Positions 10,977 to 29,272 are shown, numbered from the stretch's first letter. The stretch: DNA of 55,232 nt from Candidatus Sungiibacteriota bacterium (GCA_016432465.1 CP066690.1:1-55232); one strand, 5' to 3'. The notes: a model not told the origin generated them from the letters alone. Program-made: numbers and translations.

Positions 10977-12356
10977 ATGCCGGTGTTAGAAAAATCCACA
11001 ATTTCAACTGAAATACGCATGCCCCCGCAAAATATAGAAGCCGAGATGTCGGCCTTGGGCTCTTTGATGTTAGATAAAGACGCTATTTTTAAAGTGGTGG
11101 ATGCGTTGGCTCCGCATGATTTTTATAAGCCCAGTCATCGGGAAATTTACGAAGCCATGTTGGATTTATTCGGACATCGTGAACCTATTGATGTTTTAAG
11201 CATTACCACGCGCCTTAAAGAAAAAAACAAACTGGAAGAGATCGGCGGCTCCGCGTATCTTACGAGTCTTATTAACACCGTTCCTACCGCAAGCCATGTT
11301 GCGCATTATGCATCCATTGTGCGAAGAAAGCGACTCTTGCGCGATCTAATTGAAGCCTCGCATCATATTGCCCAGCTTGGTTATAAAGAGGCCGAGGACG
11401 TAGAGAAACTTATTGACGAGGCGGAACAGAAAATTTTTGGGATTTCCAAAGATTCTTTGAAGCAGGAGTTTATAGCTGTGCGTGAGGTTTTGGATGAGGC
11501 TTGGGACAGGATTGATCGTCTGCATAAAGGCGACGGAGCCCTGCGCGGCGTCTCTACCGGATTTGCCGACTTGGATAACTATCTGGCCGGTCTTCAAAAA
11601 TCAGACTTGATTGTTTTGGCCTCACGACCGAGTTTAGGGAAAACCTCTTTGGCTTTAAATATCGCCCGTAATGTTGCTCTTGATGAAAAAAAAGCGGTAG
11701 GGATTTTTAGTTTGGAAATGTCGCGGGAGCAGTTGATTGATCGCCTGATTGCCAGTGAGGCCAATGTGGATCTTTGGAGACTGCGAACGGGGCGTATGAG
11801 GTCGGAAGGACCTGATAATGATTTCGTCCGGGTGCGCGATGCTATGGAAGTGCTTTCCCAAGCCCCCATTTTTATGGATGACTCCCCTTCCCCCACGGTC
11901 ATGGAGATACGCGCGAAAGCCCGTCGGCTTCAGGCGGAACACGAATTGGGATTGGTGGTAATTGATTATTTACAACTTATTAATGGCGGCGGTTATACTG
12001 AATCACGGGTGCAGGAGGTTTCAGAAATTTCGCGGGCATTAAAAGGTATGGCCAAGGAGTTAAGCGTCCCGGTTCTCGCTGTATCGCAACTATCCCGCGG
12101 GGTTGAGATGCGCCACCCGGCGATCCCTAAACTTTCGGATTTGAGGGATTCGGGAACCATTGAGCAGGACGCGGACGTGGTAATGTTTATTTACCGTGAA
12201 GATAAAGATAAGAGAAATACAGACCGCAAAAACATTGCCGAAATTCATATTGAAAAACACCGTAATGGTCCAACCGGCAAAGTCGAGCTTTATTTTCACG
12301 AGGAAACAACGTCTTTCCGATCATTGGCAAAACATTTTGAAGAAACAACCTCGTGA
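10977..12356 (+). CDS. dnaB: Replicative DNA helicase
   Basis: PPQNIEAE, Walker A RPSLGKT, IDYLQL, SDLRDSGTIEQDAD; no intein. Confidence 0.98.
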   Translation: MPVLEKSTISTEIRMPPQNIEAEMSALGSLMLDKDAIFKVVDALAPHDFYKPSHREIYEAMLDLFGHREPIDVLSITTRLKEKNKLEEIGGSAYLTSLINTVPTASHVAHYASIVRRKRLLRDLIEASHHIAQLGYKEAEDVEKLIDEAEQKIFGISKDSLKQEFIAVREVLDEAWDRIDRLHKGDGALRGVSTGFADLDNYLAGLQKSDLIVLASRPSLGKTSLALNIARNVALDEKKAVGIFSLEMSREQLIDRLIASEANVDLWRLRTGRMRSEGPDNDFVRVRDAMEVLSQAPIFMDDSPSPTVMEIRAKARRLQAEHELGLVVIDYLQLINGGGYTESRVQEVSEISRALKGMAKELSVPVLAVSQLSRGVEMRHPAIPKLSDLRDSGTIEQDADVVMFIYREDKDKRNTDRKNIAEIHIEKHRNGPTGKVELYFHEETTSFRSLAKHFEETTS

Positions 12357-12985
12357 TTTACCCAAAACCAGTCCAAAATCTAATAGCGCTTTTTACCAAA
12401 CTCCCGGGTATTGGCCCGAGACAAGCGGCTCGTTTTTCTTTTTTTATTCTCAAAGAAAACAACAGTTTTTTACAAAATTTGATTTCAGCCCTGCAGGAGG
12501 CAGGCAAAAAAGTAAGCGTCTGCGGACAATGTTTTCGGACCGTAGAACGCTCGGACGATGCTCCGTTGCTTTGTGTTTTCTGCAAAGATTCCAGACGCGA
12601 GAAAACGATTATTGCCGTGGTGGAAAAAGAGTCGGATATGCAAGAGCTTGAAAAAACCAGCGCGTATCACGGCCTTTATCATGTGTTGGGCGGCGTAATA
12701 TCTCCTCTTGATCCGGAGTCGCCTAAGCGTCTGCATCTTAAAACCCTGCATGAGCGAGTTAGGACCCTGCTTGGTACCAACCCGGAGGTTGAAGTTATAC
12801 TTGCGACTAATTCCACTACCGAGGGCGATACCACCGCACTTTACCTGGAACGAATTTTGGAACCTCTTAAAAATCAACATCAGGGATTAAAAATTTCCCG
12901 TTTGGGACGGGGGCTTTCTTTGGGTTCGGAGCTTGAGTATGCCGACGAGGTTACTCTGAAAAACGCCTTGACAAACAGAAAGTAA
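12353..12985 (+). CDS. recR: Recombination mediator RecR
   Basis: LPGIGPRQA, C4 zinc finger, YHGLYHVLGG, EGDTTA, LEYAD. Confidence 0.96.
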   Translation: MIYPKPVQNLIALFTKLPGIGPRQAARFSFFILKENNSFLQNLISALQEAGKKVSVCGQCFRTVERSDDAPLLCVFCKDSRREKTIIAVVEKESDMQELEKTSAYHGLYHVLGGVISPLDPESPKRLHLKTLHERVRTLLGTNPEVEVILATNSTTEGDTTALYLERILEPLKNQHQGLKISRLGRGLSLGSELEYADEVTLKNALTNRK

Positions 12986-14174: not shown

Positions 14175-14741
14175 TTATTTTCTCCGCTTCTCCTCCCGTC
14201 GCTCCTTAGCCAACCGCTGATTGATGCGGCGTTTCTCCGCCGCAGACAACTTCGCGTAGTTGGCCGGACGCACAAACGGGGCAAAAGCCCGTTCGGCGCC
14301 GGCGCGGGCAGGGTCAATCCCGTGGATAGTCCGGATGAGTCGGCCATCTACCTCCTGTATTCTGCGCTCGGTGGTTACGTCAACGGTATGGCTCCTGATT
14401 TTACCCCCAAGGAGCGTATCAAGATGTGTGATCCCCTTGGAGACATTTCCAGACCTCCATCCGCTGTTCGCGATGTCTGTAAACGCCATTCGCAGCAACG
14501 CTGGCCATAACGGCCACTCTGCGGCTATGCGCTCTGCCACAGAGTACTGCGAGCAGGCGTTCACCAAGCGTCGCGCCATTTCACGCAACTGCTTGTCGTT
14601 CGCCCCACCCGTGGGGGCATATCCCAAAAACCCCGAGCTGGCCTCCTTTATCTCGGCCTCCGTGTGTTCCCTCCAACGCGCCAGCGGGATGTTTCTCCGC
14701 AGGCACCAGAGGAGTATGGAGACGGTTGCATGTTGAACCAT
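14175..14741 (-). CDS. Hypothetical protein in visibly GC-richer DNA
   Basis: 188 aa ORF filling the rplU-rmuC gap; no recognised motif. Confidence 0.5.
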   Translation of the reverse strand: MVQHATVSILLWCLRRNIPLARWREHTEAEIKEASSGFLGYAPTGGANDKQLREMARRLVNACSQYSVAERIAAEWPLWPALLRMAFTDIANSGWRSGNVSKGITHLDTLLGGKIRSHTVDVTTERRIQEVDGRLIRTIHGIDPARAGAERAFAPFVRPANYAKLSAAEKRRINQRLAKERREEKRRK

Positions 14742-14819: not shown

Positions 14820-15854
14820 TCAATCTTCAGTTGTCGGAGCTTCTAGAGTCACTACTTCTACCCCCGTCCCTTTGCCAGTAATTTTTAAAACATCTTTATC
14901 AATCTTTCCAAATTCTTTATAGGCGCTGTTATACATGTTTACGGTTGTCCCCAAATTACGACCCAATTTTTGCAGATACTCCTCGTAGGCCGCAAGGTGT
15001 CTGCGCAGATTTTCCACCTGTTTAATAATCTCTTGAGCCTGCTCCGAGATTTTTTGATTCTTAAGCCCCTGCAGAACGGTTTGCAAGTATGCCAGGAATG
15101 AAGTTGGCGAAACTATGATAACCTTTTTTTGTCCGGCATAATGTATCAGGTTTCTGGTGTCGTCAGTTACTGCTCCGACCTTGTTTATAAGAAGGTCATA
15201 ATATACCGCCTCCGAGGGAATAAACATAAAAGCAAAATCCATAGTTCTTTCCTCCGGCTTTACGTATTTAGAAGTTTCCTCAATACGAGTTTTTAAGTCC
15301 GAGACAAAGGCCTGCTCATAACGTTTCCGCTCTGCGTCTTCGCGGGCTTCAAGAATCCTATTGTAATTTTCAAGACTGAATTTAGAATCAACGGGGATGA
15401 TGCGTTTATCAACAAAAATGGCCGCATCCACAATAACGCCGTCCGCAAACCCATACTGCATTTTATAGGACCCGGGAGGAAGTACATTTTCTAAAACCGT
15501 CTGCAGATAATATTCGCCTAGAATCCCACGTTGTTTTGGGTTTTTTAAAATATCCTGAAGGTTACGCAGCTGATCGGCAAAACTAACCACCTGTTTATTG
15601 GTCTCATCCAGTTTAACCAGTTTTTCTGTTACTTCCTGAATAATGCGGGTACTCGTGCCGAATTGATTTTGTAACATACGGGATGATTCGGAAAGACGAT
15701 TGTCCAGGGTTCGTGATATTTCGCTGATTTGCCGCTGCAGCATTAAAAACACATTTTCTTCCTGCGGCTTTTGGGTGCGTTTTAATAAAAACCAAAATAC
15801 CCCGGCAAAACCGGCGATAAGGAGCACAATTAAAATGATAAATTCAGGGCTCAA
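14820..15854 (-). CDS. rmuC: DNA recombination protein RmuC
   Basis: N-terminal TM, KQRGILGE, IPVDSKFSLENY, FAFMFIPSEAVY, IVSPTSF; probable TTG start at 15854. Confidence 0.93.
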   Translation of the reverse strand: MSPEFIILIVLLIAGFAGVFWFLLKRTQKPQEENVFLMLQRQISEISRTLDNRLSESSRMLQNQFGTSTRIIQEVTEKLVKLDETNKQVVSFADQLRNLQDILKNPKQRGILGEYYLQTVLENVLPPGSYKMQYGFADGVIVDAAIFVDKRIIPVDSKFSLENYNRILEAREDAERKRYEQAFVSDLKTRIEETSKYVKPEERTMDFAFMFIPSEAVYYDLLINKVGAVTDDTRNLIHYAGQKKVIIVSPTSFLAYLQTVLQGLKNQKISEQAQEIIKQVENLRRHLAAYEEYLQKLGRNLGTTVNMYNSAYKEFGKIDKDVLKITGKGTGVEVVTLEAPTTED

Positions 15855-15895
15855 TGGTATTAACTGTAAGAACTGAACGCGTTGTTCACACTTTT

Positions 15896-16078
15896 GAAAG
15901 CGCGGTTCCCTCCCCCCGCCCTTGGGAAAAGACGTTCGGCTGGGGTATGACATTCCATCTTGTGTTCTCCCCGCCTCACTAAGCATTCGGGACGCAACCA
16001 GCACTGTTTTACTACCACCTCATCACTTCAGCGTCCCTCCTGATTCTTTTCCCAACGGCGGGGCTCGACCGCGCTTTC
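15896..16078 (-). ncRNA. Putative structured element, copy 1 (three-way junction)
   Basis: Nested stems 15896-15906/16068-16078, ~15916-15932/16045-16062 and 15989-15995/16031-16037; homologous to copy 2. Confidence 0.55.
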
Positions 16079-16086
16079 ATCCATCT

Positions 16087-16313
16087 CCGCCCCGCTTTTT
16101 GTATAGATACGTGGGTTCGAGCCCCTCACTTGGTGGAAAGAATCGGAAGTGCCGCTGCCAATGGGGAGTCGGGGTGAGGAGAAACGCAAGGGAGCGGCAC
16201 GGACGCTTAGCGAGGCGGAAGAAGAAACGTATAAACCAGATACCTGCCGAGCGTCTTTACACCAAGTGAGGGGCGAGGGGTACCCGCATACCTTTCTGTA
16301 AAAAGCGGGGCGG
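16087..16313 (+). ncRNA. Putative structured element, copy 2 (inverted paralogue)
   Basis: Stems 16087-16100/16300-16313, 16122-16135/16260-16273 and 16149-16156/16193-16200; junction sequences shared with copy 1. Confidence 0.55.
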
Positions 16314-16354
16314 GAAAGTGTGAACAACGCGTTGAATTCCTACACATTAACCTA

Positions 16355-17707
16355 TCATCCCTTAATCAACTTTTCAACCTGGATGAGTTTTTCGTCAAAA
16401 AGTTCTTTTGTTTTCGCCTCCAGCACCAGTCTGACAATGGGTTCGGTGTTTGAGGGCCGTATATTAAACCACCAGTCAGGGAACTCTACGGTTATACCAT
16501 CCAGACGCGAAATTTTCTCTCCCTGGTATTTACGTTCAACCTTTTTTATTACTGTACGTCCGTCTTTAATGTTAAAATTTATTTCGCCCGAAAAAATATA
16601 ACGCTTAAAGGGTTTAATAAGCTGCGATAGCGGCCGAGGATTTTTGGAAAGTATGGCCGCGAGCTTCAACCAAGCAAACAGTCCGGAATCAGCATAGAAA
16701 AATTTCTGGAAATAAAAGTGGCCCGACATCTCTGCCCCCAAAGAAGCGCGGGCTCGTCTCATAGCCATATGCATAAAAGTATTGCCAACACGGCTAAGCA
16801 CCACTTTTCCTCCACGCTCTTTTAGGTATTCTCTAACTGAGCGCGAGGTATTAACGGGCAAAACAAAAGTGTTTGTCTCTTTATCCTTAAGTTCCTCCGA
16901 AACAAAAATGCCCAGAATATATTCCGACCTTACCATCTCTCCTTTTTCATCAAAGAAAATAACCCGATCTCCGTCCCCGTCAAAAATAGCCCCAAAGCTA
17001 TATCCCCCTTTTTTGAGCTCTTCCTTAATGGGTTTTTGAGAGGCGGGCAGATACGGACTAGGCGAATGCTTTTTAAAAGCGCCGTCCGGTTCAAAAAAAA
17101 GCGGCTTGTAAGTAATTTTGGGGAATTTATTAAGAAGTTCCGGAAGAAAAAATGTCGTGCTGCCGCCGCCGGCATCAACCACGGTTTTGATACGTTTAAT
17201 TGATGCATTTTTGGCAAGGAAATGTATGTATTTTTCGCGATAGTCGGCAGCGGTCGTCACCATACCCATGGAGTCAAACAACAAAGGCTTTCTTTTTACG
17301 AGATTCCTGATCACTTCTAGTCCGTTCCCTGAAAAAATTGGTATGCCGCCCCGCCCCCTTATTTTAAAACCGTTATATTCCGGGGGATTATGGGAGGCCG
17401 TGATCATAATACCTCCGTCAAATTTCAGAGTATGCATGAGGAAATAAAAAAAGGGTGTAGTGCCTGTGCCTGCGTCCCAAACATCGCTTCCGCAGGAAAT
17501 AATGCCGTTTATCAGCGCCTCTTTAAGCGGTTGGGAAGAGTTGCGAACGTCTCGGCAGACCAAAATTTTTAGCTTTTTCTTATGGTTTTTTTTTGAGAAA
17601 AACGCTGTTAGTGCTTCTCCCAGACGCTGCGCCACAAACTCGTTAATTTCGGCTGGATATTTCCCGCGGATATCGTATGCTTTAAAAATGGTGGGTTCAA
17701 TTCTCAT
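16355..17707 (-). CDS. Phosphomannomutase/phosphoglucomutase family protein
   Basis: FKAYDIRG, TASHNP, FDGDGDR, GAEMSGHFYF, RPSNTEP. Confidence 0.95.
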   Translation of the reverse strand: MRIEPTIFKAYDIRGKYPAEINEFVAQRLGEALTAFFSKKNHKKKLKILVCRDVRNSSQPLKEALINGIISCGSDVWDAGTGTTPFFYFLMHTLKFDGGIMITASHNPPEYNGFKIRGRGGIPIFSGNGLEVIRNLVKRKPLLFDSMGMVTTAADYREKYIHFLAKNASIKRIKTVVDAGGGSTTFFLPELLNKFPKITYKPLFFEPDGAFKKHSPSPYLPASQKPIKEELKKGGYSFGAIFDGDGDRVIFFDEKGEMVRSEYILGIFVSEELKDKETNTFVLPVNTSRSVREYLKERGGKVVLSRVGNTFMHMAMRRARASLGAEMSGHFYFQKFFYADSGLFAWLKLAAILSKNPRPLSQLIKPFKRYIFSGEINFNIKDGRTVIKKVERKYQGEKISRLDGITVEFPDWWFNIRPSNTEPIVRLVLEAKTKELFDEKLIQVEKLIKG

Positions 17708-28600: not shown

Positions 28601-29272
28601 AACACCCTCAAGGATTTTTCTTAAGGCCTCTGCGCCAATAGCGGCCTCAAACACTTCTCCAATTTTTTTGCTTAAACGATGGTACTCAACTTCGGAAATT
28701 ACCTGATGGATGTGTAAACCACGCAGCTCTTCCTTAATCCGCTCTTTGGTGCTTTTCAGCTGAACCAATTCTTCCCCTTTGATATTTTTTGATTTTATGC
28801 GGAACTCGCGCTCAATTTCTTCAAGCGCCCGTAAACGCACCTCTTCATCAACCCTGGTTACAATGTAGCCGGCAAAATATATCACTTTTTCCAGATCATT
28901 TACCGATACGTCCAGCACTAGTCCGATTTTGGAAGGCACGCCGCGGAGAAACCAGATATGGGAAACCGGTGCAGCCAATTTTATATGACCCATCCGTTCA
29001 CGCCTGACGATAGCCCGCGTAACCTCTACACCGCATTTATCGCAAACAATTCCTTTATAACGTATCCTACGGTATTTGCCGCAGTAACACTCCCAATCTT
29101 TTGTTGGTCCAAAAATACGTTCATCAAAAAGACCGTCGCGTTCGGGTTTGGCGGTGCGATAATTGATAGTTTCGGGTTTAGTAATTTCCCCGTGCGACCA
29201 CGACAAAATATCCTCGGGTGAGGCAAGTTTAAGTTTAAGACCGCTAAAATCTATAGCTGAAGCTAACTCCAT
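25625..29272 (-). CDS. rpoC: RNA polymerase beta' subunit
   Basis: [40 protein letters not shown]. Confidence 0.99.

Follow-up and report, generated by a model that had tools for sequence, protein, structure and literature searches.

A miniature transposable element whose arms share a conserved Y-shaped fold occupies the pgm-rmuC gap of a Candidatus Sungiibacteriota genome

What fills the gap between pgm and rmuC in this genome, and why does it hold two folded units set back to back? The window, the 55,232-nucleotide stretch of DNA that was analysed (GCA_016432465.1, CP066690.1:1-55232), has 499 nt between these genes (15855-16354). A first reading, made from the sequence alone, had described two diverged, inverted copies of a three-way-junction structure there and had offered a functional RNA or a single-stranded mobile DNA element as explanations. 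The two homologous inverted units are indeed present: copy 1 runs from about 16081 to 15893 on the minus strand and copy 2 from about 16085 to 16314 on the plus strand, with 76% identity between them, and both lie inside 15865-16344, a 480-bp element that takes up nearly all of the gap. Rather than RNA genes proper to this locus, or a regulator of either neighbouring gene, these units are the left and right arms of one transposon insertion. The parts of the locus are as follows.

14820..15854, minus strand: rmuC, downstream of the insertion (Pfam RmuC, E = 2e-57; start TTG at 15854)
15858..15864: left copy of the target-site duplication (TATTAAC), abutting the element end; direct repeat of 16345-16351, 6/7
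15865..15894: left terminal inverted repeat (TGTAAGAACTGAACGCGTTGTTCACACTTT), 30 nt, 90% complementary to 16315-16344
15893..16081, minus strand: arm 1 (copy 1), a long stem P1 capped by the three-way junction
15929-16048, minus strand: junction core of arm 1; the core pattern matches
16082..16084: short central linker between the arms, read from the sequence
16085..16314, plus strand: arm 2 (copy 2), an outer stem P0, then P1 and the three-way junction
16085-16100 with 16300-16314, plus strand: P0 of arm 2
16138-16257, plus strand: junction core of arm 2
16315..16344: right terminal inverted repeat (AAAGTGTGAACAACGCGTTGAATTCCTACA)
16345..16351: right copy of the target-site duplication (CATTAAC), direct repeat of the left copy
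16355..17707, minus strand: pgm/glmM-type phosphohexomutase, upstream of the insertion (four PGM_PMM domains, Pfam)

The stop codon of pgm (TGA, 16357-16355) lies 3 nt before the duplicated target, and the rmuC start (TTG, 15854) follows 3 nt after it. The element has no transposase gene, and because its arms differ by indels of 1-2 nt, no shared or conserved reading frame is possible in them. A comparably short central linker is found in L003, L007, L008, L010, and L017, relatives that are introduced below.

The outer limits of the element are set by terminal inverted repeats of 30 nt, which are complementary at 27 positions (15865-15894 and 16315-16344). Their core is the 19-mer AAAGTGTGAACAACGCGTT, whose reverse complement is included in the left repeat. 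This 19-mer occurs exactly twice in the 55-kb window (15876-15894, minus; 16315-16333, plus), where 0.03 occurrences are expected by chance. Its two identical copies had been noticed before and described as a tail following each unit, a description that gives way to that of a repeat core. The looser similarity reported for a further 15 nt or so is in part the remainder of the terminal inverted repeat; its 7-bp part is the target-site duplication, a direct and not an inverted repeat. A near-match to the repeat core at window position 28712 proved to be a chance match.

The same terminal repeat, with the pattern TGTARR-N8-GCGTTGTTYACAC, bounds seven other elements (L002, L003/L014, L007, L010, L017, L022), and a conserved tail, GTGTRAACAACGCG-N5-TTYYTACA, stands outside each arm. 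All element ends read 5'-TG...CA-3'. The elements range from 205 to 514 bp, and insertion sites and neighbouring genes differ between loci. With the ends of every element placed 13 nt beyond the CGCG of the repeat core or tail, a single register throughout, the 7-mers abutting them were as follows for the elements with matching flanks.

Window element: left TATTAAC, right CATTAAC, 6/7
L007: left TCATAGT, right TCTTAGT, 6/7
L017: left TATTAAA, right TATTAAA, 7/7
L010: left CTATAAT, right CTATATT, 6/7
L022, on a phage contig: left CATTAAC, right CATTAAC, 7/7

Of seven two-ended elements, four thus have abutting 7-mers that agree at 6/7 or better, whereas such matches turn up in these flanks at a background rate of 0.003; 0 of 20,000 resamplings reached four elements with matching 7-mers. 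Summed over all seven, the flank signal has its peak along the same-register diagonal, with the maximum at offset 0/0. With the phage copy added, the count becomes five of eight; the other three (L002, L014, and L016) are without a clean duplication. In the window, the duplicated target is 7 bp long and A+T-rich (TATTAAC).

For the site before insertion, RmuC relatives at 77-80% identity were compared together with their surroundings. The gene order ychF-pgm-rmuC-rplU-recR-dnaB of the window is kept in L025/L026 and in L027 (RmuC 77-78% identical), where the pgm-rmuC gap measures 24 nt and 9 nt, respectively, versus 499 nt in the window. With 15865-16344 and one of the duplicates cut out, the window reads TGA-TAG-GTTAATA-CCA-TTG at this point; the spacer is then 13 nt long and resembles the L027 junction in sequence. 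The short gaps in the syntenic relatives and this reconstructed spacer therefore identify the 480-bp element as an insertion into a tight operon junction. The L027 assembly carries elements elsewhere (L002 and L008).

An empty site was also sought on metagenome contigs, where the signal was noisy, gave no clean joint, and hinted at a diverged second copy at similar depth. A 16.2-kb metagenome contig (run X3) differs from window 16085-16218, in arm 2, at 21 positions and by five gaps. Its depth is 24.9, and the contigs of the window itself have about 22-24, as would be expected if this genome had a second, diverged copy.

The insertion leads to a correction of the rmuC annotation. The public protein record (P0002) has 377 aa, spans window 14820-16004 (minus), and runs into the transposon, inside which its start was called. 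The N terminus that aligns with the starts of relatives, MSPEF..., begins at the TTG at 15854, the real start, for a protein of about 344 aa. On the other side of rmuC, the stretch up to rplU is variable among the syntenic relatives (L027 4036-5920, L025 4036-4640), ranging from 60 nt to 1.9 kb and holding zero to three small unannotated reading frames; in the window it has one 188-aa reading frame (14175-14741) with no Pfam match. A length difference in recR between L023 and L024 is due to scaffold Ns.

Our identification of window 15865-16344 as one non-autonomous miniature inverted-repeat transposable element (MITE) is firm. Apart from a known parent element, it shows every testable property of a MITE: terminal repeats, a duplication of fixed length, an empty site, small size, and unrelated insertion sites. 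The mobile-element option of the sequence-only reading is thus sustained by the terminal repeats, the duplication, and the empty site, but mobility as single-stranded DNA is at odds with the 7-bp duplication and the TG...CA ends, features that point to a cut-and-paste element of DDE type moving as double-stranded DNA and not an HUH-type single-stranded one. The element entered the 13-nt pgm-rmuC spacer with duplication of 7 bp of target. The TG...CA ends and the 7-bp staggered cut point to a DDE transposase of retroviral-integrase type (IS481/IS21/IS3/Tn552-like), which would have moved it in trans. An autonomous copy, with the same repeats around a transposase gene, was not found, and viral scans gave the 205-bp copy described next and one chance match; the transposase family is therefore a guess.

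That 205-bp copy, L022, is a MITE with the same terminal repeats on a phage contig (IMGVR_UViG_2744054918_000001, in the region 11306-12832). Its interior is an unrelated simple foldback without the junction, and its CATTAAC duplication is perfect. The contig encodes a major capsid protein E and a Mu Com-like zinc-ribbon protein, and the element sits between the Com-like gene and a weak match to a D12-class adenine methyltransferase, a com/mom-like pair. It begins 1 nt after the stop codon of the first gene and ends 5 nt before an in-frame ATG of the second.

Inside the terminal repeats, the arms are two hairpins, both read outward, and the three-way junction previously proposed for each is borne out by folding. 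Arm 1 folds better than shuffled sequence with z = -7.0 and arm 2 with z = -7.65, and none of 200 shuffles equalled either arm. A consensus fold of both copies comprises 42 pairs, of which eight are compensated; among these are the swaps in P2 that had already caught attention (GGGACGC/GCGUCCC versus GUGCCGC/GCGGCAC). Covariance model R1 scores 157 bits on arm 1 (E = 7e-47) and 170 bits on arm 2, over 16104-16294. Arm 2 has the additional outer stem P0 (strands CCGCCCCGCUUUUU and AAAAAGCGGGGCGG), for which compensated changes can be read from the alignment in L003.

The details of the fold recur across the family. P1 contains a conserved internal loop, UCGAG opposite GCGAGGGG, i.e. G(G/C)GAGGG. 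The junction strands are fixed (AAAGAAUC.G.AG, CG.A.GCUUAG.GAGGCG, and GCCGA.CGUCUUU) while the stems covary. J1/2 is AU and J2/3 is GCUUA; a 2-bp helix leads into P2 together with a 3x3 purine loop (GRA/GRA), and another into P3 together with a tandem GA/GA loop, both purine-purine loops being fixed, and a single G stands ahead of the closing UCUUU. The P2 loop A(A/G)UGAGGAG is conserved in most copies. The P2 versions GGGACGC and GUGCCGC, each present in several genomes, are two old variants, and a third, GGGCCGC, exists. For the whole element, z is -9.7 on one strand and -9.0 on the other, and in both folds the two arms rise from a stem of paired terminal repeats. In the predicted model, a single strand of either polarity closes into a T, in which the paired terminal repeats would form a stem of about 35-40 bp with the two arms on top and the flanks would be brought next to each other. 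Two further structural candidates were discarded. Pairing of the P2 loop GAGGAG with a CUCC linker as a pseudoknot would amount to no more than 4 bp and has no counterpart in units of arm-1 type. The motif GGTTCGAGCC resembles a T-arm or a relic of a tRNA, but ARAGORN detects none there, and the motif is missing in other copies.

Homologues were sought by pattern scans built on the junction strands, in reference genomes and then, with a second pattern, in metagenomes. The scan of reference genomes returned seven true homologues and one chance match. Of the seven, Parcubacteria GW2011_GWA2_45_30 has three loci, and the other four are distributed over three MAGs that carry the label Saccharibacteria. 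The metagenomes added 13 loci, six of them new sequences, for a total of 15 distinct units from at least eight genomes or metagenomes, the two window copies included. L004, on a Lachnospiraceae contig, and L029, inside an 1848-aa reading frame, were recognised as chance matches. A blastn comparison of the whole gap with phage and plasmid collections gave no match.

The 15 units align to the same long stem and three-way junction, and 97% of cells pair. Compensatory changes, on both sides of a pair, occur in 20 of 38 pairs compared with 11.6 +/- 1.6 in column shuffles, and the covariation score is 0.366 versus 0.167 in shuffles and at most 0.11 with slid partners; for both measures, 0 of 500 shuffles reached the observed value. 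The positions written into the two search patterns are invariant by construction; the evidence comes from the stems, from flanking junction bases, and from the P1 internal loop. Across the 15 members, G-U cells number 22 and A-C cells five, which singles out one of the strands as the one that folds. The junction itself is real, and it is constrained. The earlier expectations that homologues elsewhere would covary, that structure is kept while sequence drifts, and that G-U pairs favour the strand proposed for each copy all hold in this alignment. No Rfam family accounts for the junction: the region gave no match at curated gathering thresholds, and at E up to 10 only two chance-level matches, both well short of the threshold (E = 0.19 and 0.44). 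Template switching within quasi-palindromes can, however, also produce compensatory changes in DNA hairpins with no selection on RNA.

What, then, are the folded arms for? Insertions split operon spacers of 9-24 nt with ends near start codons, from which it follows that the downstream gene is expressed through or from the element; of six co-oriented cases, the four closest have 3-10 nt between the end of the element and the start codon that follows. To judge from the placement and fold of the insertions, selection would act on the arms as single strands, most likely as RNA within read-through transcripts. Owing to the mirrored design, any read-through transcript would have one sense arm just before the downstream gene in either insertion orientation. 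Folded arms would make a 480-nt operon insert tolerable, and they could act as a self-contained folded domain or as an RNase III-type processing or stabilising site. Among eight scorable repeat-bearing elements with a single canonical arm, seven have it on the sense strand of the flanking genes, a bias that is suggestive and not significant. When the sequence was searched for in sequencing runs, it was found in groundwater DNA runs only and in no RNA run. We put the probability of the account as a whole, a MITE moved in trans whose arms are selected in single-stranded form, at about 80%.

Signals for transcription initiation or termination were looked for as well. A consensus promoter scan at the element ends found nothing convincing, and no U-runs follow the long stems; neither a promoter nor a terminator role is therefore supported. 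The conserved tail has hexamers that agree with a sigma-70 promoter at only 3-4 of 6 positions, with awkward spacing; this candidate was rejected together with the negative scan and is kept as a weak possibility, and a weak outward promoter at the repeat end might add to the role of the arms. TTGTTCACA comes near a DnaA box, and the tail was also considered as one, but in the TTGTTTACA variants the conserved C is lost. In the decayed copy L008 (4700-4720), the terminal repeat is replaced by sequence with a perfect DnaA-box consensus, TTATCCACA.

Comparison of the elements with one another shows how their interiors change. At every locus of arm-2 type, a partner arm lies directly upstream on the other strand; a canonical junction in both arms is an unusual trait of the window element. 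L010 and L017, both 472 nt long, are from a single metagenome and occupy different sites; their partner arm, corresponding to arm 1, has a diverged junction with a CGCUGGA hairpin loop. They differ in three ways only: an inversion of a 36-nt loop, one base change, and the replacement of a 96-nt block, comprising distal P2 and P3 (two junction hairpins), by a variant of equal length. The inversion is exact (L010 1804-1839, L017 2343-2378), and the inverted loop is bounded by a 12-bp inverted repeat (AAATCGCGGTTT / AAACCGCGATTT). Uniform drift is unable to produce this pattern, which indicates recent transposition together with gene conversion or template switching, between and within copies. 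The inverted loop contains a small GTCCCGC-loop-GCGGGAC hairpin, and similar ones are seen in arms of L002 and L016.

These differences raise the possibility that the arms belong to a second, separate layer of DNA that is mobile or recombines, in which hairpin or Y modules are inserted or copied between hairpin tips, the transposon is their carrier, and the junction is recognised by a structure-specific nuclease or recombinase on single-stranded or cruciform DNA rather than as RNA. The otherwise identical L010 and L017 would be examples of such exchange, and so would the partner arms of L003/L008 and L007, which keep the outer stem and carry a different cap, short in the former and long and unrelated in the latter. 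The phage-contig copy, which has the terminal repeats and lacks the junction, and the small CCCGC-loop-GCGGG hairpins nested in several arms argue in the same direction. However, insertion scars or duplications are not seen at the module boundaries, and no nuclease gene adjoins any of the loci examined. Ordinary gene conversion between paralogous copies explains the swaps equally well, and the loop inversion can be the outcome of replication template switching at an inverted repeat. We regard this explanation as possible and rather doubtful. More doubtful still is a broader conjecture, that the Y-shaped junction is itself the unit under selection, a new Patescibacteria-specific RNA or single-stranded DNA module that would be protein-recognised or catalytic; transposons and phages would spread it as cargo, and DNA-level hairpin swapping and loop flipping would diversify it in a structure-guided cassette exchange.

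The units could alternatively be genes for a trans-acting or self-cleaving non-coding RNA, transcribed outward from the element centre, with the transposon features secondary. The strong conservation of the junction strands, the covarying stems, and the strand preference seen in the G-U and A-C counts would suit such genes, as would a -10-like TATAGA/TATAAT box just before P1 of the arm-2 type in most copies. Yet the scan found no -35 element and no terminator, the sequence is in no RNA run, and two divergent promoters would have to fit into the roughly 3-20 nt that separate the arms at the centre. There is no match to an Rfam ribozyme or other RNA family even at E up to 10, and in L022 the same terminal repeats mobilise an element without the junction. 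Three units (L001/L012, L005/L011, and L009/L013) have no recognisable terminal repeats, apart from a degenerate remnant in L009, and are antisense to neighbouring same-strand genes. The junction is thus not strictly tied to the transposon and can outlive its frame or exist apart from it. A TACAAT/TACACT box about 30 nt upstream of units of this kind (L001 5920-5970, L012 4320-4370, L005 1440-1490) is a further point for the RNA-gene reading, and by this sequence evidence these particular units may be independently transcribed antisense RNAs. For the family as a whole, we consider RNA genes improbable.

A riboswitch-like, cis-regulatory leader of rmuC or pgm was suggested by the end of copy 1, which lies 40 nt ahead of the rmuC start codon on the same strand. 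The empty sites, with gaps of 9-24 nt in syntenic relatives that lack the unit, and the unrelated neighbours at other loci contradict it. Outside the window, the genes that follow the unit are unrelated or of unknown function, its upstream neighbours include those for a GHMP kinase, a VKOR-type protein, and an H+-pyrophosphatase, and at other loci it faces the 3' end of a gene; a leader function is very unlikely. A decaying local inverted duplication with neither family nor function, to which the occurrence of the element at only one place in the 55-kb window might point, is hardly credible, since 15 distinct units are known from other genomes and metagenomes, where junctions are conserved and both terminal repeats and target duplications recur.

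The MITE reading has consequences beyond this operon. Patescibacteria are ultra-small bacteria with tiny, tightly packed genomes, and here a transposon family that was recently active, with near-identical copies at different sites and one copy on a phage contig, inserts into operon spacers of 9-24 nt without inactivating the operons. Its arms are under structural constraint beyond that of ordinary MITEs, with a fixed junction, purine-purine loops, and covarying stems, and they provide a defined 120-nt fold that is testable for protein binding, processing, and catalysis.

How does the element compare with known systems? A literature search found no paper describing MITEs or such structured repeats in Patescibacteria, nor this junction. 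At the ends, the likeness is to IS481, IS21, IS3, and Tn552, which have TG...CA termini and terminal repeats of about 30 bp. Target duplications measure 4-15 bp in IS481, 4-8 bp in IS21, and 6-7 bp in Tn552, so that 7 bp falls within all three ranges, and membership in any of these families is that of a candidate only. REP sequences and REPINs, mobilised by the HUH-type RAYT, are alike in that two inverted folded units and a short spacer make up the mobile unit and structure outweighs sequence. REPINs are about 100 nt long, however, are built of short REP hairpins with a conserved 5' tetranucleotide, and have no such terminal inverted repeats and no target duplication; since the present element has a 7-bp duplication and units of about 200 nt, an identity with REPIN/RAYT was rejected, and the duplication argues against an HUH single-strand mechanism.

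The closest parallels are the Correia (NEMIS) elements of Neisseria and the ERIC elements of enterobacteria, small MITEs without a protein gene that have terminal inverted repeats and a target-site duplication. They occur in short intergenic spacers and inside operons, where a hairpin is predicted in the read-through mRNA; Correia and ERIC hairpins are substrates of RNase III or RNase E, and the element ends can supply promoters. In small size, lack of a protein gene, terminal repeats with duplication, insertion into short spacers and operons, and the predicted mRNA hairpin, the present element is like them. It differs in its Patescibacteria host, in its length (400-514 bp versus about 100-155 bp, three to four times longer), and in its duplication, which is 7 bp instead of the TA of Correia elements. 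In Correia and ERIC elements, moreover, the two halves pair with each other, whereas each half here forms its own long hairpin with a conserved junction and covarying stems. The kind of element is thus ordinary, a MITE, and the strongly conserved Y-shaped fold of its arms is uncatalogued.
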